Counted from the stretch's first letter, positions 881 through 64,000 are shown. The stretch: 64,000 bases of DNA from Candidatus Woesearchaeota archaeon (GCA_038850615.1 JAWCLR010000003.1:1506-65505), one strand, 5' to 3'. Translations and numbers: made by a program. Notes: generated by a model not told the origin, from the letters alone.

Positions 881-1291
881 ATGGTAAGAGTCTGGCTTGT
901 CCCGCCCGAATGCCTTGATGACCAGCGCCTGCTTGGCGAACACCTCGAAATCCACATAATCATCGGCGCAATCGCAAAAAGACATCAGGGAAAAAAAGGC
1001 GGGTGGGTAAATCATCCTGAAACAATAAGGTATGAAAACAGGGTAAAAGCGCTCATCAAAAGACACCAAAAACTGATTGAGGAAATGAAAAAGCGCGGCT
1101 GGAACGCAGGAAAAATCCACAAGACACCGCTTCCAACAAAAGGAATCCCAAAAAGCGCATTCAAGGACTTCAAGCCAACAAAACAAATGATTCTAAAGGA
1201 CATTTCTGACCTGAAAAAGCGCTGGAAAAAAGAAGGAAAGAAAGGCGGAAGAGTGCCTTTGAGTTCCTATAACGCCCCCGACGGACAATGA
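881..1291 (+). CDS. Pyrimidine-dimer DNA glycosylase (T4 endonuclease V / DenV-like)
   Basis: The N-terminus MVRVWLVPPECLDDQRLLGEHLEIHIIIGAI matches the phage T4 endoV pattern MTRINL..SEL.DQHL.AE.REL. Start placed at the internal ATG at 881 rather than the ORF-track start at 800. Confidence 0.7.
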   Translation: MVRVWLVPPECLDDQRLLGEHLEIHIIIGAIAKRHQGKKGGWVNHPETIRYENRVKALIKRHQKLIEEMKKRGWNAGKIHKTPLPTKGIPKSAFKDFKPTKQMILKDISDLKKRWKKEGKKGGRVPLSSYNAPDGQ

Positions 1292-1368
1292 AAATCCCGA
1301 TTCGCAAGCTCATCAGGAATTTTCAAACCCGCGTGTGCGTTCTCACTACGTTCGAACGCCCCCGACGG
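1271..1368 (-). repeat. 14-nt direct repeat of the tRNA-Glu(CTC) 3' end flanking a ~70-nt hairpin element
   Basis: AACGCCCCCGACGG occurs at 1271-1284 and at 1355-1368. Inverted repeat TGAAAATCCC (1289-1298) / GGAATTTTCA (1316-1325). The spacer is homologous to that at 39770-39827. Confidence 0.8.
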
Positions 1369-1429
1369 GATTTGAACCCGTGTCAAAGCCGCGAGAGGGC
1401 TTTATCCTTGGCCGCTAGACGACAGGGGC
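1357..1429 (-). tRNA. tRNA-Glu(CTC)
   Basis: 73-nt cloverleaf: acceptor GCCCCTG/CGGGGGC, anticodon stem AAGCC/GGCTT with loop CTCTCGC, T-arm CGGGTTCAAATCCCG. Confidence 0.9.
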
Positions 1430-2297: not shown

Positions 2298-3313
2298 GGG
2301 TTTAGCGGCTTAACCAAATTTTGAGGTGACTTTTTCAGAAACGACTCAATGTTGCTGATTGTTGTGTCAAGAATTCTCTCCAACGCTTCCTTGGAATAGA
2401 AAGCACAATGTGGCGTAACGTAAACATTGGGCTGCTCAAAAAGCACGTGCTCTGCAAGAAGGGTTTGGATGTCGCGAGCTTTCTTAAAGCCCTTCGAGAG
2501 AAACTCCAATTCCTCCTTTATTGCACATTCCTCCTCAAGAACATCAAGCCCCACTCCGGAGAATATCTTTCTTGATATGCCCTCCAGGATTGCTCCTGTT
2601 TCAATAACAGCGCCGCGCGATGTGTTTATCAGTATTGCACCCTTCTTGACCTTGTTCAGGTTCTTTTTGTTGAGCATATGGGTTGTTTCCTTCGTAAGAG
2701 GCACATGGAATGTTATCACATCGGACTCTGAAAGCAATTTCTCAAAAGGCACGTACTTGAACCCGCATTCCTTTGCGAGCTCTTCATTTGGATAAACGTC
2801 GTATGCAATAACTTTCATGCCGAAGCCGCAACTGCCGATGTGAGCGACATTCCTGCCAATTCTTCCTGTGCCGACAACGCCAAGGGTTTTGCCTTTCAGG
2901 TCAAAGCCACACAACCCCTCAATCTCAAAGTGGGCTTTGCGCGTGCGCTCCACAGCGTCAACAATCTTCCGAGAAATGGCAAGAATCAGCCCGAATGTGT
3001 GTTCTGCAACGGTGATATCACCGTACGCTGGCACATTGCTGACAGCAATCTTCCTTTTTGCGCATTCCTTGAGGTCGATATGGTCAAAGCCGGTGCTCCT
3101 GGTCGTCACCAGCTTCACCTTTGGCAGAAGGTTAAGCACCTTTTTGTCTATTTTGGAATGGATGAATACCGCGAGAATGTCAGCGCCTTTTGCCTTTGCT
3201 GCATTCTCGGGCTTGAGGGCGTCATCAATAAAAACAAGGTTGTGCTTACTCAGCCGTTTCCTGATGTATCTCTTCTGCCAAGGCTCCAGCTCAAAAAATG
3301 CTATCGTTGCCAC
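2294..3313 (-). CDS. D-isomer-specific 2-hydroxyacid dehydrogenase (D-lactate / phosphoglycerate dehydrogenase family)
   Basis: NAD-binding GVVGTGRIGRNVAHI, the catalytic-domain layout, and a 4-nt overlap with the downstream gene. Confidence 0.75.
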   Translation of the reverse strand: MATIAFFELEPWQKRYIRKRLSKHNLVFIDDALKPENAAKAKGADILAVFIHSKIDKKVLNLLPKVKLVTTRSTGFDHIDLKECAKRKIAVSNVPAYGDITVAEHTFGLILAISRKIVDAVERTRKAHFEIEGLCGFDLKGKTLGVVGTGRIGRNVAHIGSCGFGMKVIAYDVYPNEELAKECGFKYVPFEKLLSESDVITFHVPLTKETTHMLNKKNLNKVKKGAILINTSRGAVIETGAILEGISRKIFSGVGLDVLEEECAIKEELEFLSKGFKKARDIQTLLAEHVLFEQPNVYVTPHCAFYSKEALERILDTTISNIESFLKKSPQNLVKPLNP

Positions 3314-3352
3314 AGCACAAAACGCCTAACAATTAGTATTTAAATATTACGA

Positions 3353-3470: not shown

Positions 3471-3488
3471 AGGTTATGCGACGGCGGC
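3471..3488 (-). repeat. Decayed copy of the first 18 nt of tRNA-Ser(GGA), 53 nt upstream of the real 5' end
   Basis: Plus strand AGGTTATGCGACGGCGGC (3471-3488) versus AGGTTATGCGACTGCGGC (3418-3435), one mismatch. Confidence 0.7.
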
Positions 3489-3510
3489 AAACAAAAATTG
3501 AGAATAATAT

Positions 3511-39344: not shown

Positions 39345-39417
39345 GAGCCCGTAGTTTAGCGGTTATAACGCCTCGTTTACACCGAGGAGGTCGCCAGTTC
39401 GAATCTGGCCGGGCTCA
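39345..39417 (+). tRNA. tRNA-Val(TAC)
   Basis: GAGCCCG/CGGGCTC acceptor, anticodon stem CCTCG/CGAGG with loop TTTACAC, T-arm GCCAGTTCGAATCTGGC. TATA-like TTATATAAAG lies ~28 nt upstream. Confidence 0.9.
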
Positions 39418-39483
39418 TCAAAGCAAAGCATTCTAACACAACATAAGTCTCGAACTGGCGATAGACCAACCTCAGTTGGGCGT

Positions 39484-39512
39484 GTCGCCAGTTCGAATCT
39501 GGCCGGGCTCAT
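39484..39512 (+). repeat. Perfect 29-nt second copy of the tRNA-Val 3' end (T-arm plus acceptor 3' strand)
   Basis: GTCGCCAGTTCGAATCTGGCCGGGCTCAT occurs at 39390-39418 and at 39484-39512. The antisense 12-mer TCGAACTGGCGA at 39450-39461 lies between them. Confidence 0.85.
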
Positions 39513-39698
39513 GAGTTAAGCGAATGGGCACGGACAGGCTCGTCAACCGCAGTTGACCGCTGTCTGGTCGGGCTCGTGAAAACTTTCGGAATAAATGCTA
39601 TAAATTGGGCGGCTCTGCCACAGAGACCAACCATAAACGGGTTTTATAAGAAAACTTAAAAAGCAACCACTATCCAACGAGTGAGTATTATATAGTTC

Positions 39699-39769
39699 GC
39701 GCCTGTGGTTTAGTGGTAGAATACGACCTTGCCAAGGTTGAGACGCGGGTTCGATTCCCGCCAGGCGCA
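39699..39769 (+). tRNA. tRNA-Gly(GCC)
   Basis: GCGCCTG/CAGGCGC acceptor, anticodon stem CGACC/GGTTG with loop TTGCCAA, T-arm GCGGGTTCGATTCCCGC. Confidence 0.9.
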
Positions 39770-39840
39770 TCGGCGCACAGCGGACCTGAAAATCCCAGAC
39801 GAGCAATGCGAGTTGGAATTTTCATTACCTGCCAGGCGCA
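39770..39840 (+). repeat. Second copy of the hairpin element plus a repeat of the tRNA-Gly 3' end
   Basis: TGAAAATCCC (39787-39796) / GGAATTTTCA (39815-39824). GCCAGGCGCA occurs at 39760-39769 and 39831-39840 (13 nt with one mismatch). Confidence 0.8.
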
Positions 39841-39851
39841 CACATCTCTTT

Positions 39852-40283
39852 TTATTCCAATAATGCCTTCAACTTCCTGAACGCATCCTCCTGGGTATCC
39901 CACTCAAGCCGTTTTAGTGCATCATCAAACGAAACCCACTGAAAGTCGTCATGCTCCTTGCAGACATTAACATCAAGGCGCACTTTGGCATCAGGAGTGA
40001 CTTCAAAACAGAAAACGTGCTCTGTAATTGGATTTCCCTTATCAAGCCACGTGAATACATGCACGTTCTCAATAACCCTAATGACGCCCCTTTTTCCAAT
40101 TCCTGTTTCTTCAAGCATTTCACGATACGCTGCATCCTTGATTGAAGCATCGGTGCTTTCAACGCTTCCTGTTATCGGCTGCCAACTGCCACTCCCAATG
40201 CGCTTTAGCAGAAGAAACTCATATTCGTTGTTTTTCTTACGAAAAAGTATGCAGTTGACTTTGGTGTCCTTGCTCATAATCAA
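39852..40283 (-). CDS. NUDIX hydrolase
   Basis: NUDIX box GSVESTDASIKDAAYREMLEETGI. Confidence 0.8.
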   Translation of the reverse strand: MIMSKDTKVNCILFRKKNNEYEFLLLKRIGSGSWQPITGSVESTDASIKDAAYREMLEETGIGKRGVIRVIENVHVFTWLDKGNPITEHVFCFEVTPDAKVRLDVNVCKEHDDFQWVSFDDALKRLEWDTQEDAFRKLKALLE

Positions 40284-40345: not shown

Positions 40346-40457
40346 GGCCCTTTAGCTCAGTCCGGTAGAGCAACGGTCTTATATGACCGCTGACGGAACA
40401 AGAAGTCAATGGCTCTAAGAGCACCGTCGGTCGCCGGTTCAAATCCGGCAGGGGCCA
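40346..40457 (+). tRNA. tRNA-Ile(TAT) with a 38-nt intron at 37/38
   Basis: Acceptor GGCCCTT/AGGGGCC, D-arm GCTCAGTCCGGTAGAGC, anticodon stem ACGGT...ACCGT, loop CTTATA|intron|C, T-arm GCCGGTTCAAATCCGGC. The spliced length is 74 nt. Confidence 0.7.
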
Positions 40458-40513
40458 CTTTTATTTTTTTGTGCGATACCTTTTTAAAACAGCCAAGTTC
40501 TTATTGGCATATT

Positions 40514-40607
40514 GCCCCTGTCGTCTAGTCCGGCCAAGGATAAGGGCCTTTCGTGCGGCAAAACGCAAGGAAAGCCTTTGACACGGGTTCAAATCCCGTC
40601 GGGGGCA
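40514..40607 (+). tRNA. tRNA-Glu(TTC) with a 19-nt intron at 37/38
   Basis: The body is near-identical to tRNA-Glu(CTC). Anticodon stem AGGGC...GCCTT, loop CTTTCG|intron|A. Confidence 0.85.
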
Positions 40608-40734
40608 TATGATTGTCCGCGAAGAATTGCTTGGCTACTACACCAAAAGCAAAGCAGAAATCCAAAAAGCAATTGCAAGATACCGCGAACTGAAGGCATT
40701 ATTTGAATAGTATAATGACAAGGAACTTCTTGAA

Positions 40735-41629: not shown

Positions 41630-41916
41630 ACCTACTAAATCCTAATTAGCATCAACGCCAAGCGCCGGTAAATCATTCCGGCAAGCTTTCTGTCCTCGGG
41701 AAAACTGAGGATGCCTACCAAAAACACGGTAGGAATGAGTGTCTCAGCTGAGCCTGAGGCATGATGGAGGGCAGCAATAGAACCCAAAAGCCAAATTCCA
41801 TTTTAGTCTGATGCGACCACAAATGTGGGAAGGGTTAACGACGAGGCTCCATTGATTCGTCAATGGTCATATCGTCTTGACATAACTTTCCTCAGGAGAA
41901 AACTCCGACATCACAG

Positions 41917-43382
<1,466 letters not shown>

Positions 43383-43471
43383 AATTTACTTTAAAGGACG
43401 GAGTCCATTGCTGCGAGCAACTTCGAAATTCCATCCGCAGACTCCGAGTGGAGCGAAGCGGAACGAGGTTG

Positions 43472-43496
43472 CCTGCGGATGGATCACCTCCTAATT
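43472..43496 (+). repeat. Perfect 25-nt duplicate of the 16S 3' terminus, including the anti-Shine-Dalgarno sequence
   Basis: CCTGCGGATGGATCACCTCCTAATT occurs at 43362-43386 and at 43472-43496. The antisense TCCATCCGCAG at 43430-43440 lies between them. Confidence 0.85.
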
Positions 43497-43606: not shown

Positions 43607-43699
43607 GGGCCCGTAGCTCAACGGTAGAGCACCTGCCTTGCAGGAAACAAATGTTTCCAGGAGCGCGGGAGGCTTCGGGTTCAAATCCCGACGGGTCCA
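43607..43699 (+). tRNA. tRNA-Ala(TGC) with a 21-nt intron, in the 16S-23S spacer
   Basis: GGGCCCG/CGGGTCC acceptor with G3:U70, anticodon stem CCTGC...GCGGG, loop CTTGCA|intron|C. Confidence 0.85.
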
Positions 43700-43924
43700 T
43701 CCATCCGAGTATCACATTCATCATTTCATTCGATGAACGCAAATCGCGATTCTAACTAATCGCGGTTGAAGGGCAATAGGCTGTAGGAGCGCATAATGCA
43801 AGACGTAAGACGCACGACGCATAAAAAAAGCGGCCGGCGTCAAGCGCAAGGCGTCCTGCGCGCCCAATAACCACACCTACTACATGCTAATGACGGCCGT
43901 GCAAAGATTGAGATCATATCTGGT

Positions 43925-46835
43925 CCTACACTACCCTAACAGGTGGAAGACTTGGTTCGAGACGCCGATGAAGGACGCGGCTAACGGCGAAATGCCCCGG
44001 CGACGTGTATGCAACGGTTGAACCGGGGATATCCGAATGGGACTTCCTCTTGAGCACGAAAGTGCGGGGAACGCGGGGAATTGAAACGTCTTAGTACCCG
44101 CAGGAAAAGAAATCAATCGAGATGCGCTGAGTAAGAGCGACTGAAAAGCGCATAGGGCAAACCGAACGAGGGAATGAAAGTTCTCTCGAATGTGGTGTTT
44201 GGACCCGTGCCAATACCTCGCTGGGAAACGCAAAGTCGCCTGGAACGGCGCGCGACACAGGGTGACAGCCCCGTAGCGGCACCTCAGCAGGTTACGAGCA
44301 TGGAGTTCCAGAGTACTGTTCCTCGGAAATGGAGCAGGAATACGGGGGGCATCAACCTCCAACCCTAAATACGTCTCGAGTCCGATAGCATACAAGTACC
44401 GTGAGGGAACGTTGAAAAGAACCCCTGACCGGGAGTTCAAAGATCCTGAAACCTGTTAGGTATGGATCGCTAGGGCACCACGGTGTTCTAGCGTTCGTTT
44501 AGAATAACGAGCCGGGGAGTGCATCTCAGTGGCAAGGCTAACCTTTATCAGGGAAGCCGAAGCGAAAGCAACAAGCCCGCAGGCAACGAGGGGCGGGGTG
44601 CTAATCCGCCTGGAGTCACTGGGATTCGACCCGAAACCGCTCGATCTTATCCTGAGTAAGGTGAAGTGCGGGTAAAACCGTGCGGAGGCCTGAAGAGGTT
44701 CTATGAGCAAGTGTTCTTCTAACTTGGGATAAGGGGTGAAAAGCCAATCGAGAGCGGTGATAGCTGGTTCCTATCGAAGTAGGCGTCAGTCTAACCTGGG
44801 ACGAGCTGACAGGTGCTGTAGAGCGACGGATTGGGGGTTAAGGCATCGAAAGGTGTCGACCCTCTGTCCAACTCCGAAAGTGCCTGTAGCGTAGACTCCC
44901 GGAGACGGGGTGTCGGCGTAAGGTTGACATCCGAGAGGGGAACAACCCTGACGCTGGTTAAGGTCCCAAAAGACGCATTAAGTGTGAACGGGCATAAGGG
45001 TATCTGCGTCCAGAGACAGCGGGGAGGTTGGCTTAGAAGCAGCCATCCTTTAAAAAGTGCGTAACAGCTTACCCGTCAAGGATGCGGGTCCCTAAAATGG
45101 ACGGGGCTAAATGCGTTACCGATACCAGCGACGCCCCAAAAGGGCGGAGTAGGTAGGCGTACTGCGTGGGCAGAAGCTTCTCCGTAAGGAGGGGTGGACC
45201 GCGTAGTAATGAAAATCCCGGCAGTAGTAGGATCGTAGCAGCGTGAGAATCGCTGCCACCGAAAGGGCAAGGGTTCCTTGGCACTGTCGATCAGCCAAGG
45301 GTCAGTTGGTCCTAACAGAGCTCCCAACAGGAGCCGATGTGGAAAGGGAAACCGGTTAATATTCCGGTACTGTCTGTGTATGCGTGGCAACACAAGCCTC
45401 GTGTCAGACGCTTTTGGCTAGATGGGCGCAGACCGTCGTCTGCGTTAACCCGGATACGCCGCGGGAGTATCATCATGATGAGAACGCGGGGAAACCGGGG
45501 AACAGCATTCCTTTGGAGTGTCCTGTCAATGCCTGGAGCCCATGAAAATGGCACAGGGAAAAATCACAGGCATCCGTACCCAGAACCAGCACTGGTGCCC
45601 CTAGGTGAGAAGCCTAAGGTGTGAAGGACGAACCTAGACAAGGGAACTCGGCAAATTGGTCCCGTAACTTCGGTTTAAGGGATTCCTGCTCCTGTGCGCA
45701 CATGCGTGGTGGGAGCAGGGCGCAGTGACTCGGGGGTCCCGACTGTTTAACAAAAACACAACTGGTTGCAAAGCCGTAAGGCCGTGTACAACCGGTGACG
45801 TCTGCCCAGTGTCGGTATCCGAATCTCGTTTTCAAGCGGGCTAAGGACCGATTAACGGCGGGAGTAACTATAACTCTCTTAAGGTAGCGTAATGCCTTGT
45901 CGTTTGATTGGCGACGTGCATGAAGGGCGTAACGAGGTCCCCACTGTCCCTGTCTGGGAGCCTCCGAATAAATCCTTCTGGTGCAGAGACCAGAGATCTC
46001 CAGTGGGAAGCGAAGACCCCGTGAAACTTTACTGTAGCTTGTCGTTGCGGCGTGAGCTGCGTTGTATAGGGTATGTGGGAGCTGCTTGAGCCCAGTGCCG
46101 TCAGGCGCTGGGTGAGGCGACGATGTAACACCACACTCCGCGACTTGCGTTGCTTACCTTCCGAAAGGAAGGGACACCGGCTGGCGGACAGTTCGGCTGG
46201 GGTGGCACGCAGTTGAAAGGATATCAATTGCGACCAAAGGTCTGCTCAACCCGGTCAGAAATCGGGTGTAGAGTTTAAGGGCAAAAGCAGGCCTGATGGG
46301 ATACTTAATAAGATTGTATCCCAAGGCGAAAGCCTGGCCTAGCGAACCTCAATGTCCTTCTTGATGAGGGCTTGGGATGACCGAAAAGTTACTCCGGGGG
46401 TAACAGAGTCGTCGCGCCTGAGAGTTCACATCGACGGCGCGGCTTGCTACATCGACGTCGGCTCTTCCTATCCTGGGCGTGCAGAAGCGTCCAAGGGTGC
46501 GGGAGTTCACCGTTTAAAAGGGATCGTTAGCTGGGTTCACAACGCTGTGAGGCAGTTGGTTTGATATCTACTGGAGATGCGAGATGTCTGAGGGGAAGGA
46601 AGCTCTAGTACGAGAGGAACGAGCTTTCGGCGCCACTAGTGTACCGGTTATCCGATAGGGTATCACGCCGGGCAGCTACGCGCTGAGGGATAAGTTCTGA
46701 AAGCATCTAAGAATGAAACCCTCCTCGAAAAGAGACATCATAGTGCACGGATACAACATCCGTTTGATGGAAGCGGGGTGTACGCGCGAAGGTAACGACG
46801 CGCTCAGCCTGCGCTCCCCAACGCACATACTTGGA
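43925..46835 (+). rRNA. 23S rRNA (archaeal); ends approximate (about +/-15 nt)
   Basis: 5' ...AGGTGGAAGACTTGGTTCGAGACGCCGATGAAGGACGCGG; internal GGATAACAGAG-like and ...CTGAAAGCATCTAAG... blocks. The flanks ATCTGGTCC (43913-43921) and GGATTAGAT (46833-46841) can pair as a processing stem. Confidence 0.85.
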
Positions 46836-47045
46836 TTAGATGCGATTTCAGTCTTTGCATGGCCATCATTTTTCCTTTTTTTCTTAATTCATTGACTATG
46901 CAGATCCGGAAGTTTCGCAATTCTTCCGCAAAACAATCTATTTTCAGGAATTCTTCCGGCTTAAATGCAAATGTGTTTGGTCAAACCGCAATCGTCACAA
47001 GATTTTCACCAAAATTCACTTTAAGACTGTTGTCTTTTTTTTGCA

Positions 47046-61434: not shown

Positions 61435-63729
61435 ATGGCAATAACTGACATCGCCAACATTCCTGTTCTGGGCGCGCTTCCAAACATACCAAAGCTCTAT
61501 TCCAGCAATCCAAGCCTGAGCTTCATCATTGACATGGTTTTGCTTTCTGTCGTGTTCGGAAGCTTGCTCGCGCCGCTTGGGCACCGCGTTGTGAGGGACA
61601 AGCCCCTTGGCAGAAGGTTTGGAGCAGTGCTCGGCCTCGTGTTCGGAGTCACATCTGCATTCGCACTGCACAACGCAGGAGTCACACTGTTCACTTACTG
61701 GCTGACAAGCTTCGCAGTTGTGGTAGTAATCAGCGTTGTCATTTTCAAAATAATGAGAGCGCTGGGCATGAACAAGGTTTGGTCAAGCGTCGGATTAGTA
61801 GCAGCCGCATATGCGCTTTCATTACTCTGGTTTTCTCAGTCTGGTTTGTGGAGTGAAAATGTAGTGGTTGGCTTTAATTACGGCTTGCTCTTGGTTATTC
61901 CAATACTAATCGTCATCCTGATTTTAGTTCTTTTCCACATATTCGCGACAGGACCAGCAGCCGGCCTGCTTGGCAGGATTTTTGGGCGCGGACCACCACC
62001 AGCAGCACCAACCCCGCCAGGACCTGCACCACCAGGAGCACCGCCATCAGAAGGACCCACTCCACCAGAACCTGCACCACCAGGAGCACCACCTTCAGGA
62101 AAAAGGCGCAGCCTGATTAGCAAAATAGTCGAAAAACGCAGACCAACCCCTCCAGGAGCACCGCCAGAAGGACCAACAACGCCTGAAAGAACAGCAGAAG
62201 CAGCAACAGAAGCAACCAAAACAGCAGAGGACGCAGGAGACGCTGCAGTTGCAAGCGAAAAAGAAAAGGAAAAAGTGGCAGAAGAAGGGATTGAACTAAC
62301 AGACAGGTTCAAAAACGCCCTGATGAAGCTCCTTGTAAAAATTGACGAGCTTCTCGACAAAACAACAGCAATAAACAAGTACGATGTAGGATATGTAAAA
62401 AAGCTGGTTGACGAAATCATTCCGCTGTATGATGCCTTAAGCAAGCTATTGGGCAACCTGCAGAGGCACGTAAAAACACTGCAGGATTATGAACAGGCGC
62501 TAAATGCAGCAATGGCCTGGCACGGCACGCTGGAGCGTGACATTGAAAAATGGAAGCAGAGAGTACGCGAGTTTGAAGCAGGCATACGCGCACTCGCGGA
62601 TGAAACAGTAAAAGCACGGCTTCTTTGGACAGCGGAACAGATAGAAAATAAAGTAACAGCCCTGGGCAACATTGTTAATACGCTTAATCCTGTGATTGCC
62701 CGCATTAATTCGCGGCATTTGCCAATGCTGCAGAGAATAAAAGTTGACAATAGATATGCGGTTCTTTACGACCTGCTGACAGCAAGGCCTGAACGGCTAA
62801 AGCAGCCATTGAAATACGCAAGCAGCGCCCTTGCCAAACTTGCCGGCACTGCAGAAGTGCCCAAGGAAGAAATAAGAGAAATTCTGGAAGGCATCAAGAA
62901 AATGCTTACGCCGCTCGTAACTGTTGACGCGCCAAAACTAAGGAATGCCTGGGAAGGGATAAGCGCAACGTACGAAACAGAACTGAAACAAATACAGAAG
63001 GATGTCACGTACTTAAACAATCAATACAAATTCATACCAGCAAAGCTGAACGAAATAAGAAGACTCCAAAATAAGCTTGTTGAGAAATTCCAGGCGCAAA
63101 AGGCGCGCGAGGAAGCAGAGGAAAAAGCAGAATTTGAAGTGCTAACAATTAACACAGAAGCAAATCTCGCGGAAATAAAAAATGAACTGCAGAGGGAGAA
63201 AATAAATCTTAGGTCACTGGTGAAAAGCGTAACGGTTCTTGTTGAAGAAATGAACAAGGAAATAGAAAAGACTTGGAATAGCTTTAAAATGGATGAGAAG
63301 AAGAACTTTTTGGAAAGAGCATTTGATGCTGCAAAAACAAAAACACAATACACGGAAGCGCCAGCAGACACAGTGACGAGCGCGCTGGAAAGCATATCGC
63401 TTCAGCATCGCAGGGTACAAGGGCTAATTACATCATTGCCTACCAACACCCCTGAACTCGCGCAGCTGACAAAAATCAATGCAAACCTTGAAACGTTCAT
63501 GCGCGCAAAGCAAGCGCTTGTTGCACTTCTGACAAATACAAGGAATGAATTGGTTGCAGCAGGACTTAATGCCCTATCAGGCCCTCGCCCAAACCTGCAG
63601 CAAATCGTAAAAGAAATGCTGAGGGATGTGGCCAACAACGCAATACAACTTCTTACCCTGCTGGAGCCACCAACACACCAATCCACCACGCCAGCAGGAC
63701 CGCAGGCTTATCCTGGGGCAGGTAGTTAA
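61435..63729 (+). CDS. Large membrane-anchored protein with Pro-rich repeats and a long coiled coil, hypothetical
   Basis: About 5 N-terminal transmembrane helices, PPGAPP-type repeats (aa ~190-250), then ~500 aa of heptad-like Lys/Glu/Leu-rich sequence. Confidence 0.6.
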   Translation: MAITDIANIPVLGALPNIPKLYSSNPSLSFIIDMVLLSVVFGSLLAPLGHRVVRDKPLGRRFGAVLGLVFGVTSAFALHNAGVTLFTYWLTSFAVVVVISVVIFKIMRALGMNKVWSSVGLVAAAYALSLLWFSQSGLWSENVVVGFNYGLLLVIPILIVILILVLFHIFATGPAAGLLGRIFGRGPPPAAPTPPGPAPPGAPPSEGPTPPEPAPPGAPPSGKRRSLISKIVEKRRPTPPGAPPEGPTTPERTAEAATEATKTAEDAGDAAVASEKEKEKVAEEGIELTDRFKNALMKLLVKIDELLDKTTAINKYDVGYVKKLVDEIIPLYDALSKLLGNLQRHVKTLQDYEQALNAAMAWHGTLERDIEKWKQRVREFEAGIRALADETVKARLLWTAEQIENKVTALGNIVNTLNPVIARINSRHLPMLQRIKVDNRYAVLYDLLTARPERLKQPLKYASSALAKLAGTAEVPKEEIREILEGIKKMLTPLVTVDAPKLRNAWEGISATYETELKQIQKDVTYLNNQYKFIPAKLNEIRRLQNKLVEKFQAQKAREEAEEKAEFEVLTINTEANLAEIKNELQREKINLRSLVKSVTVLVEEMNKEIEKTWNSFKMDEKKNFLERAFDAAKTKTQYTEAPADTVTSALESISLQHRRVQGLITSLPTNTPELAQLTKINANLETFMRAKQALVALLTNTRNELVAAGLNALSGPRPNLQQIVKEMLRDVANNAIQLLTLLEPPTHQSTTPAGPQAYPGAGS

Positions 63730-63764: not shown

Positions 63765-64000
63765 TTATATTGACTCCTGGTTCATAATATTGTCCGGCGG
63801 GGGAGTTGGAGAACCTTGCTGATCTGCGCATGGGGACGCAAAAGGCTGTGTGAACAGTGGTTTAATGCCAAGCTGAACCTTGCAGTGAGCCATACGCTCT
63901 CTGGCGCCATAATCACAAATGCCTTTTTCATACGCCTTAAGAGCCTTGCGGTAATACTCAAGGCGATTGGTGTCTTCTGTTTCGTCTGCTTTTCTTGCCA
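63765..64000 (-). CDS. Hypothetical protein, C-terminal part only (the 5' end lies beyond the window)
   Basis: Open minus-strand frame ...NRLEYYRKALKAYEKGICDYGARERMAHCKVQLGIKPLF...PPPDNIMNQESI, stop at 63765-63767. Confidence 0.3.
   Translation of the reverse strand, partial: ARKADETEDTNRLEYYRKALKAYEKGICDYGARERMAHCKVQLGIKPLFTQPFASPCADQQGSPTPPPDNIMNQESI

Follow-up and report, generated by a model that had tools for sequence, protein, structure and literature searches.

Miniature hairpin insertions that duplicate the ends of tRNA and rRNA genes in one Woesearchaeota clade

Introduction

CTXphi-type elements carry no recombinase of their own and integrate as folded single strands by means of host Xer recombinases; two inverted, target-like copies in the single strand fold so as to imitate the duplex target, the reaction is not readily reversible and tandem arrays are common. 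Folded integron attC sites and CTXphi attP recombine with their targets to leave the same order of copies as that described here. Integrons have been reported in Nanoarchaeota (PMC9668308). At tRNA genes, the casposase of A. boonei generates a 15-bp duplication overlapping the 3' end of tRNA-Pro, depends on the T-psi-C-loop segment next to it and is also able to insert short DNA (PMC5137440), and partial tRNA copies derived from tRNA-integrating elements are well documented in archaea (PMC9897764, PMC3293823).

We analysed a 64,000-nt stretch of a Candidatus Woesearchaeota archaeon assembly (GCA_038850615.1, JAWCLR010000003.1:1506-65505; hereafter the window), in which an initial annotation had drawn attention to a tRNA-Glu(CTC) 3' end duplicated across a hairpin-bearing spacer. 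The finding is real and more general than first reported. The locus belongs to a set of elements that, like CTXphi-type elements, present a target copy, the element, an inverted copy, a loop and a second target copy, stack in tandem and carry no recombinase. They resemble attC-bearing cassettes in being short, gene-less or gene-poor units with an imperfect hairpin, in which structure is conserved over sequence, bases are left unpaired and one strand is favoured, and in their order (core repeat, cassette, inverted core, loop, core repeat), with the newest unit nearest the insertion site. In common with MITEs, REP/BIME sequences and IS200/IS605-derived palindromes, they are non-autonomous hairpins of tens of bases in multi-copy families. 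With tRNA-integrating viruses, plasmids and islands they share a tRNA 3' duplication that restores the gene, a variable repeat reaching past the gene end and tandem accumulation (PMC9897764, PMC3293823), and with casposons, at some sites, a duplication of approximately 14-15 bp over a tRNA 3' end, together with a T-psi-C loop upstream and the insertion of short DNA (PMC5137440).

Results

The duplicated tRNA-Glu(CTC) end and its spacer

The 14-mer AACGCCCCCGACGG was located, as the initial annotation had claimed, at both 1271-1284 and 1355-1368, so that the tRNA-Glu(CTC) 3' end recurs 84 nt downstream across a 70-nt spacer. When up to two mismatches are allowed, the 14-mer is matched 4 times in the window, where shuffled sequence would give 0.08, the third being the 3' end of the other tRNA-Glu gene and the fourth lying at 63794-63807. 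Read in the sense of the RNA, the locus comprises the following features, where X denotes the copied RNA-gene end and X' its inverted copy:

1357-1429, minus strand: tRNA-Glu(CTC), the intact target gene (ARAGORN; Rfam tRNA 54.8 bits; identical in four relatives)
1355-1368, minus strand: proximal X, sense CCGTCGGGGGCGTT, which spans tRNA positions 62-73 and 2 bases of the trailer
1342-1354, minus strand: linker, sense CGAACGTAGTGAG, with the CGTAGTGAG motif
1328-1341, minus strand: X' (sense AACGCACACGCGGG), which repeats the tRNA 3' end imperfectly in inverted orientation and pairs with distal X in the predicted fold
1289-1325, minus strand: family-A core hairpin, whose 10-bp arms (1316-1325 and 1289-1298) are extended by 3 bp and capped by an apical loop
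1285-1288, minus strand: TTGT junction from core to distal X (TTRY in 5/5 family-A copies)
1271-1284, minus strand: distal X, whose plus strand encodes a new C-terminus of the Pyr_excise ORF

The proximal copy is indeed the tRNA end: it takes in the acceptor 3' strand and the discriminator, preceded by 4 bases from the 3' strand of the T-stem and followed by 2 trailer bases. The 10-bp inverted repeat described between the copies, TGAAAATCCC (1289-1298) and GGAATTTTCA (1316-1325), is also present; 9/10 positions pair on the plus strand and, on the tRNA-sense strand, the odd position is a G.U wobble. The earlier reading overlooked the inverted tRNA-end copy in the spacer, which pairs with the distal repeat; a perfect complement would read AACGCCCCCGACGGG, whereas the actual X' is AACGCACACGCGGG. 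The linker and the end of X together form a 12-nt palindrome (GCGTTC-GAACGC). The pattern TGAAAATYCC-N14-22-GGRATTTTCA has exactly two matches in the window (1289-1325 and 39787-39824) against 0 expected.

The 70 nt between the repeats contain no ORF of their own. The ORF at 800-1291 is a pyrimidine-dimer DNA glycosylase (Pfam PF03013/Pyr_excise, E=3.5e-22) that, as had been proposed, reads through the distal repeat, gaining six codons (N-A-P-D-G-Q) before it ends at a TGA in the hairpin arm.

Across the window, exact local direct repeats of at least 11 nt numbered 17, compared with 3.35 in shuffles. Three of the four longest lie at RNA-gene 3' ends (tRNA-Val, 29 nt; 16S rRNA, 25 nt; and tRNA-Glu, 14 nt, the last tied in length with one other repeat), and the remaining long repeat (21 nt) is internal to a long ORF at 61435-63729.

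Empty sites and insertion polymorphism

The window is archaeal (16S rRNA at 41916-43382, 23S rRNA at 43919-46840 and at least 11 tRNA genes). Among the genomes of the collection, those most closely related to it are metagenome-assembled genomes of Woesearchaeota. One of these, PGS172224_bin_2 (loci L045 and L120), is syntenic with the window, with 98% identical 16S rRNA and approximately 81% identical coding DNA.

Comparison with orthologous tRNA-Glu loci, collected via the neighbouring NAD(P)HX dehydratase gene, bore out the initial annotation: four related Woesearchaeota genomes lack exactly the 84-bp block. In these loci (L120, L121, L123 and L124) the tRNA-Glu(CTC) is identical and its end, ...GGGGGCGTT, runs straight into downstream DNA, which in L121 and L123 is the same glycosylase (Pyr_excise) gene with its stop codon abutting the tRNA end. 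The window locus is this L121/L123 arrangement plus one 84-bp block. The four empty loci thus mark the block as an insertion in which 14 bp from the end of the tRNA are duplicated, and 1271-1368 is best read as an 84-bp insertion made up of a 70-nt non-coding hairpin element and a 14-bp target duplication. Given the genome relationships, a single gain in the window lineage would be the simplest history; some of the empty sites could be secondary, precise (and repeated) losses instead of ancestral states. An exact-protein match for the neighbouring gene returned only one 1.4-kb contig, which ends before the tRNA.

The polymorphism also runs in the other direction. An 84-nt family-A element follows the rRNA-spacer tRNA-Ala in L045, where the window is empty, and family-B elements (described below) follow tRNA-Ala(CGC) or tRNA-Ala(GGC) in L120, L121, L123 and L124, where the window has none.

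Further insertions in the window and in related genomes

Four further insertions of this kind were found at RNA-gene ends of the window:

39758-39840, plus strand: second family-A element, after tRNA-Gly(GCC), with an orthologous copy in L045
39390-39512, plus strand: recent insertion after tRNA-Val, with a perfect 29-nt duplication and 65-nt filler, absent from L045
39513-39576, plus strand: older family-B element after tRNA-Val, core GGCTCGTCAACCGCAGTTGACCGCTGTC at 39537-39564, common to L045
43362-43496, plus strand: analogous structure at the 16S rRNA 3' end, with a perfect 25-nt duplication and 85-nt filler

The first of these was the basis on which a recurring element had been claimed, and the claim holds: the same core follows tRNA-Gly, again between two copies of a tRNA 3' end. 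The gene (39699-39769) ends in X at 39758-39769 (CCGCCAGGCGCA); the body of the element spans 39770-39828, with arms at 39787-39796 and 39815-39824, and the distal X at 39829-39840 (CTGCCAGGCGCA) has one mismatch to the proximal copy. The insertions at the tRNA-Val and 16S rRNA 3' ends had escaped the earlier reading. The tRNA-Val duplication (39390-39418 and 39484-39512) encloses a filler holding a perfect 12-nt antisense segment, TCGAACTGGCGA, and its predicted fold has z = -4.76. The older family-B element beyond it is closed by a decayed copy, TGGTCGGGCTCG, at 39565-39576, so that the younger, perfect-repeat unit is stacked on the tRNA side and the older, L045-shared unit is distal. At the 16S rRNA gene the 3' end, CCTGCGGATGGATCACCTCCTAATT, is repeated 110 nt downstream (copies at 43362-43386 and 43472-43496), and the filler includes an antisense segment, TCCATCCGCAG (43430-43440); in L045 this place is taken by an insert that is related but not the same. 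At 3471-3489 in the window, a tRNA-Ser gene has direct, inverted and direct copies of its 5' end upstream, and three upstream copies of a tRNA-Ser 5' end in the same pattern were seen in locus L234.

In a search of one genome per species, the strict family-A core pattern occurred only in L045 (two copies, after tRNA-Gly and tRNA-Ala) and in L181 (one copy, after tRNA-Leu, with a perfect 16-nt duplication). All three of these copies sit between duplicated tRNA 3' ends. Viewing every tRNA in the related loci revealed a second core family, B (GGG-CTSG, a 6-bp hairpin and CGCTGT), after tRNA-Val, Ala(CGC), Ala(GGC), Ser(GGA), Ser(CGA) and Glu(UUC), as well as fillers seen only once each, at tRNA-Val, Met and Ser. 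In loci of this clade, 16 of 53 tRNAs have an exact 10-mer of their 3' end repeated downstream, compared with none of 55 in unrelated loci; two further loci of clade genomes contributed 4 more such recurrences. In this Woesearchaeota clade, elements occur at the 3' ends of roughly one third or more of the sampled tRNA genes and at that of the 16S rRNA gene. Among the matches listed for a loose hairpin pattern and for the family-B pattern, most were bacterial chance matches, and copy numbers across genomes are lower bounds.

Elsewhere, a metagenome scan for the family-A core pattern gave one match, which was unrelated; a scan of viral contigs gave no match for family A and, for the family-B pattern, a single match resembling unrelated GC-rich DNA. 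Rfam 15, at the gathering threshold and at E up to 10, returned tRNA-related matches only and no family for the elements. Pfam assigned approximately 40 ORFs of the window to housekeeping genes, with no candidate enzyme, and the 64 kb encode no recombinase, integrase, transposase, reverse transcriptase or Cas1. In the literature searched, no account of elements like these came up.

Architecture, folding and covariation

Each unit has the order, in the RNA sense, X (the RNA 3' end), linker, X', core hairpin, X and original downstream DNA. A 4-bp mini-hairpin, either TCAC-GNA/GNNA-GTGA or GC-GAA-GC in type, often opens the linker. Pairing of X' with the distal X makes the outer stem, and the whole unit folds as one long imperfect hairpin; such a fold was predicted for 21/21 elements (z from -2.4 to -4.8). 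The CGTAGTGAG motif in the linker of the Glu element also occurs in family-B elements of relatives (L123 elements start TCACGTAGTGAGG), and its presence in both the family-A Glu element of the window and the family-B Ala elements of L123 argues that modules have been shuffled between families.

For family A and B elements, the first base of the distal X almost always corresponds to tRNA position 61/62 and its last lies 0-4 nt beyond the discriminator, giving duplications mostly of 11-16 bp (Glu 14, Leu 16, Gly 12, Ala 12-13 and Val 12). Overall the duplication length ranges over 8-32 nt, with 8, 19, 25, 26, 29 and 32 nt also occurring, and after tRNA-Ala and tRNA-Met in L124 it reaches 16-18 nt beyond the tRNA, into the trailer.

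When X' was tested as a duplex against about 16 tRNA ends, the cognate end was the best in 9/17 cases and among the top two in 13/17; for the Glu element the cognate tRNA-Glu came only 4th of 16. At G.U pairs of the tRNA, X' in most cases complements the 3' strand by Watson-Crick pairing (three Ala elements have A opposite U70), and it also extends into trailer bases. Both properties identify X' as an inverted copy of the gene 3' end, and the former led us to reject a minihelix copy of the tRNA 5' strand and leader. In two old L120 copies X' looks 5'-like. Outside X', the filler sequence has no source in the 3 kb around it, and a purely local templated insertion was rejected on this ground. 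Reverse transcription of mature tRNA was likewise rejected, since the repeats hold genomic trailer bases and no CCA, as was mutagenesis of the type carried out by diversity-generating retroelements, since the differences between X' and X are not adenine-specific.

Changes within the hairpins preserve pairing. Among 14 family-B cores, 96.4% of cells pair and double-sided changes occur in 3/6 pairs, with arm variants GTCAAC/GTTGAC, GCCAGC/GCTGGC, GTCAGC/GCTGAC and GCCAAC/GTTGGC; one-sided changes are U.G and never A.C, and the covariation score was reached by 0/500 shuffles. Family A also has a compensatory change, GAC/GUC in other copies having become GAU/AUC in the Glu element. The sense strand is predicted to be more stable than the antisense strand in 17/21 elements (mean 3.9 kcal/mol), which would fit selection on one single strand, whether RNA or DNA, but could come in part from G-rich tRNA 3' strands.

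As for known structured RNAs, a hammerhead ribozyme was considered because of CUGAUGAG...CGAA in the loop of the Glu element, and was rejected because these letters are not kept in other copies and Rfam gives no match; C/D-box and H/ACA guide RNAs were rejected because box motifs are absent.

Turnover and rearrangement

Several copies record events after insertion. The acceptor stem of tRNA-Gly in L045 has changed from CAGGCGCA to TGGGCGCA and the distal copy retains the old sequence, which argues that distal copies are not functional exons. At tRNA-Ala(CGC) of L123 the distal copy matches the changed tRNA and X' matches the older sequence, a mismatch that, on the sequences compared, points to re-insertion or gene conversion. 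Young copies have a perfect X duplication while their X' is imperfect. In L234 a Val-type X-linker-X' segment lies between two family-B cores inside a Ser unit, as expected from a circularly permuted unit recombining at the core; a circular or permuted intermediate is possible. An orphan unit, away from any tRNA, was observed in L243.

Discussion

It is well supported that the units are insertions, that they form families, aim at stable-RNA ends and duplicate their target, and that their hairpin is constrained. Of the three origins offered by the initial annotation, a miniature insertion with a long target duplication stands, with four empty sites at tRNA-Glu and a core present or absent elsewhere; an intron is not supported and a plain integration scar is unlikely. 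We see an even chance that the Glu feature is a member of a lineage-specific group of miniature, gene-less insertion elements at stable-RNA gene ends, which are mobilised in trans, probably as a folded single strand.

The mechanism that we infer has the following steps. An element would be mobilised in trans and would integrate as a folded single strand, its X'.X stem imitating the duplex target; one strand exchange inside X would then yield the order X, rest of the element, X', loop, X. Replication would fix the inserted copy, which might later decay or be lost by recombination between the two X copies. Integration of this kind would be expected to produce an imperfect stem, strand bias, a gene-less unit, array growth on the tRNA-proximal side and an accumulation of decayed copies. 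It requires that the X and X' of the element already match the target, and taken alone it leaves unaccounted for the occurrence of one core family with matching arms at Glu, Gly, Ala and Leu. The varying duplication length (8-32 nt, some reaching 16-18 nt past the tRNA) fits no single fixed cleavage geometry.

The elements also differ from each of the systems that they resemble. By eye they lack the RYYYAAC (R'') and GTTRRRY (R') core sites, and this absence of attC-defining motifs is a point against the analogy with folded-strand integration. Their outer stems are tRNA-specific X'/X, the family-A arms read TGAAAATYCC/GGRATTTTCA, and the 7-nt attC consensus is not matched by the inner arms of family B, for example GTCAAC/GTTGAC and the variants GCCAGC/GCTGGC and GTCGGC. 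The duplication comprises 8-32 nt of an RNA gene, compared with approximately 7 nt in integrons; the elements lie at many tRNA and rRNA ends, whereas integrons have one attI beside intI; and there are no cassette ORFs between the repeats and no tyrosine recombinase in the window. CTXphi-type elements are kilobase-sized phages at the dimer-resolution site, in contrast to units of 30-110 nt at RNA-gene 3' ends, for which a role of archaeal XerA would be hypothetical. MITEs, REP sequences and related palindromes have fixed short target duplications or none and simple sequence targets, unlike the variable duplications and target-derived arms seen here, and we found no parent IS for the elements. 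To our knowledge, no MITE- or REP-type element has arms matching an adjacent RNA gene or is confined to RNA-gene ends. Set against tRNA-integrating viruses, plasmids and islands, the elements retain no integrase or other gene and are distinguished by uniform miniature size, an internal inverted target copy and a conserved hairpin. We would file them among small non-autonomous insertion elements and tRNA-targeting integration, with a real possibility that the mechanism behind them is new. A more specific proposal, which we regard as rather unlikely, is that the elements are a class new to description: miniature elements that would home to stable-RNA ends through an internal X' placed in a conserved mini-hairpin and core scaffold, be retargeted by changing or re-copying X', grow arrays on the gene-proximal side and be handled by an enzyme acting on folded single strands.

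Two other ways of inserting DNA at these sites have to be weighed, each of which we judge unlikely. In the first, a casposase/Cas1-like or other integrase acting in trans would recognise the T-loop and make cuts staggered by 12-16 bp, gap repair would duplicate X, and X' would have pre-existed in the element. The start of the family A and B duplications right after the T-loop (61/62), their prevailing 11-16 bp and the perfection of X but not X' in young copies agree with such cutting, for which the A. boonei casposase at the tRNA-Pro 3' end is a precedent (PMC5137440). Duplications outside that range (8, 19, 25, 26, 29 and 32 nt) speak against it, as do the lack, by eye, of terminal inverted repeats abutting the duplications and of Cas1 within the window, and it leaves the match of X' to the local tRNA unaccounted for. 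In the comparison with casposons, neither Cas1 nor PolB is encoded in the window; the target duplication, 14-15 bp in casposons, is 14 bp at Glu, 16 at Leu and 12-13 at many sites but ranges over 8-32, and it includes 12 nt of the tRNA against 5; and, by eye, the left ends (TCACG.., CGAACG.., TGAGCG..) are not inverted copies of the right ends (..CGCTGT, ..CATTGT).

In the second, the units would be replication or repair by-products at heavily transcribed RNA genes, where template switching at stalled forks would give X' by snap-back and the second X by upstream re-priming, and the cores would spread between loci through T-loop-like microhomology common to all tRNAs. The direct-inverted-direct pattern (X, X', X) is general, being found at tRNA-Ser 5' ends as well; one-off fillers contain short palindromes, such as GGGGATATCCCC (L123 tRNA-Met) and GCGTTCGAACGC (the Glu junction); and core junctions lie in sequence resembling the T-loop and T-stem. 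Yet the fillers other than X' do not derive from the 3 kb on either hand, X' shows imperfections that X lacks, and different loci and genomes retain the cores and the linker motif, with compensatory changes, which argues for descent and selection on structure and not for repeated accidents.

It is quite improbable that the features are scars of integrase-carrying viruses or plasmids at tRNA 3' ends, mostly deleted down to attL, a remnant and attR. The part of the initial suggestion of an att scar that fits is the att-like duplication itself, and a tRNA 3' repeat of variable length running past the gene end, with the newest unit stacked proximally, is classic for tRNA-integrating elements. But the approximately 20 instances share one compact architecture, all being 30-110 nt long with the same modules at the same distances from X, so that independent deletions of larger elements are an unlikely source; the sampled loci (approximately 20 sites) hold no longer version, the hairpin stems covary and two scans of viral contigs found no related copy.

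Very unlikely as a sufficient account, though compatible with a mobile origin, is that the units are functional 3'-trailer RNA modules co-transcribed with the tRNA or rRNA, which might mimic the acceptor/T-arm minihelix (in 3' processing, stability or termination) or act as an X'/X antisense switch. The modelled folds lend it something, the sense fold being favoured in 17/21 elements with more G.U pairs, one-sided core-stem changes being U.G and never A.C, and the X'.X stem of approximately 12 bp ending at the discriminator as in a tRNA minihelix; native T-runs often follow the distal X. It is opposed by the presence or absence of units at the same tRNA in close relatives, by the decay of distal copies, which do not follow changes in the tRNA (L045 Gly), and by the lack of any Rfam match, even in permissive searches. 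The remaining suggestion, an intron-like segment cut out by the archaeal splicing endonuclease so that the distal copy is the true tRNA 3' end, is extremely improbable: removal of one repeat and the spacer would regenerate the same tRNA and three other tRNAs in the window have canonical introns, but tRNA-Glu is complete with a normal score without splicing, no bulge-helix-bulge was seen by eye at the boundaries (the folds showing one long hairpin), and L045 distal copies, outdated at Gly, differ from the tRNA and their use would break the acceptor stem.

Whatever the route of insertion, the elements leave partial tRNA and rRNA copies that can confuse gene callers and alter the ends of neighbouring genes, here giving a DNA-repair glycosylase a new C-terminus, and they may mark rearrangement points (L234 and L243). 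The duplicated 16S rRNA 3' end includes the anti-Shine-Dalgarno sequence and could matter for rRNA maturation. If these elements are active, no smaller units are known to insert specifically at the ends of tRNA and rRNA genes, each with an inverted target copy; they would be a natural case of repeat-spacer arrays growing at a set place in the genome independently of CRISPR, and would suggest that DPANN archaea have a recombination or repair activity that has gone unrecognised.

Duplications at the ends of RNA genes

Duplication in the window also affected a ribosomal RNA gene and the 5' end of a tRNA gene, at the following positions:

43362-43496, 16S rRNA 3'-end duplication with its spacer
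3471-3489, duplication of the tRNA-Ser(GGA) 5' end, 53 nt upstream

A 25-nt segment (CCTGCGGATGGATCACCTCCTAATT) made up of the 3' terminus of the 16S rRNA gene and its trailer, with the anti-Shine-Dalgarno sequence in it, occurs in a second perfect copy 110 nt downstream; the spacer between the copies carries an 11-nt antisense segment, and the rRNA processing stem encloses both copies. At the same position, the locus of the syntenic relative PGS172224_bin_2 (L045) has a different insert, which ends in GATCACCTCCT. The two copies of the tRNA-Ser(GGA) 5' end agree at 18 of 19 bases, and a degenerate antisense copy lies between them. L234, one of the related loci, has three copies of the tRNA-Ser(UGA) leader together with the 5' end (minus strand, about 2950-3110). 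The duplication phenomenon therefore extends beyond 3' ends.

Gene content and spacing around the units

39390-39576, two stacked units (miniature hairpin insertions) behind tRNA-Val
39852-40283, minus strand, NUDIX hydrolase gene separating the tRNA-Gly unit from the following tRNA
91-415 (perhaps extending to about 700), minus strand, frameshifted LAGLIDADG endonuclease pseudogene (Pfam LAGLIDADG_3)

The older of the tRNA-Val units belongs to family B, one of two families defined by the core hairpin, and is common to the window and L045; the recent unit, with a perfect 29-nt duplication, is absent from L045. Only ~20 nt separate the tRNA-Gly unit from the next tRNA in L045, in contrast to the NUDIX gene at this place in the window, so that a gene-sized insertion or deletion adjoins the unit. 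The LAGLIDADG pseudogene consists of two fragments (E about 2e-4 to 4e-4, slightly below the curated cut-off) and lies between a tRNA-Ser truncated by the window edge and the pyrimidine-dimer DNA glycosylase gene; the related loci L121 and L123 have just ~50 nt at this position.

Three tRNAs of the window carry introns, and the isotypes called for these by ARAGORN were inconsistent or unresolved:

40346-40458, Ile(TAT) as called
40513-40608, Glu(TTC), read from the L045 orthologue
43607-43699, tRNA-Ala(TGC) of the rRNA spacer

Further copies and atypical units

In more distant Woesearchaeota (MAGs Yap2000.bin4.8 and YT1_182), a repeat made of two hairpins (aaatcYgatttttgc...gcaaaaatcatc, then gaTGAAAATTCCttt...aaaGGAATTTTCAgattt) recurs at several intergenic positions; its second hairpin has the core arms of family A (TGAAAATYCC/GGRATTTTCA). 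Six copies were inspected (L001, L021, L027, L062, L064 and L070, leaving out other pattern-matched loci of these MAGs, e.g. L085-L117); five adjoin no called tRNA, and the L001 copy has one at a distance of about 125 nt. Within the 23S rRNA gene, but antisense to it, a 13-nt stretch (45207-45220) is identical to the family-A arm and its junction (GGATTTTCATTGT); this is probably a chance match (BLAST E about 0.2).

In L234 (minus strand, about 3190-3340), Ser arms enclose a Val-type segment with two cores, giving a chimeric nested unit. The related locus L243 (minus strand, about 590-650) has an orphan family-B unit bordered by a 3' end that resembles that of a tRNA-Ser; no tRNA lies in the vicinity. 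Both units may be sites where the elements underwent recombination or rearrangement.
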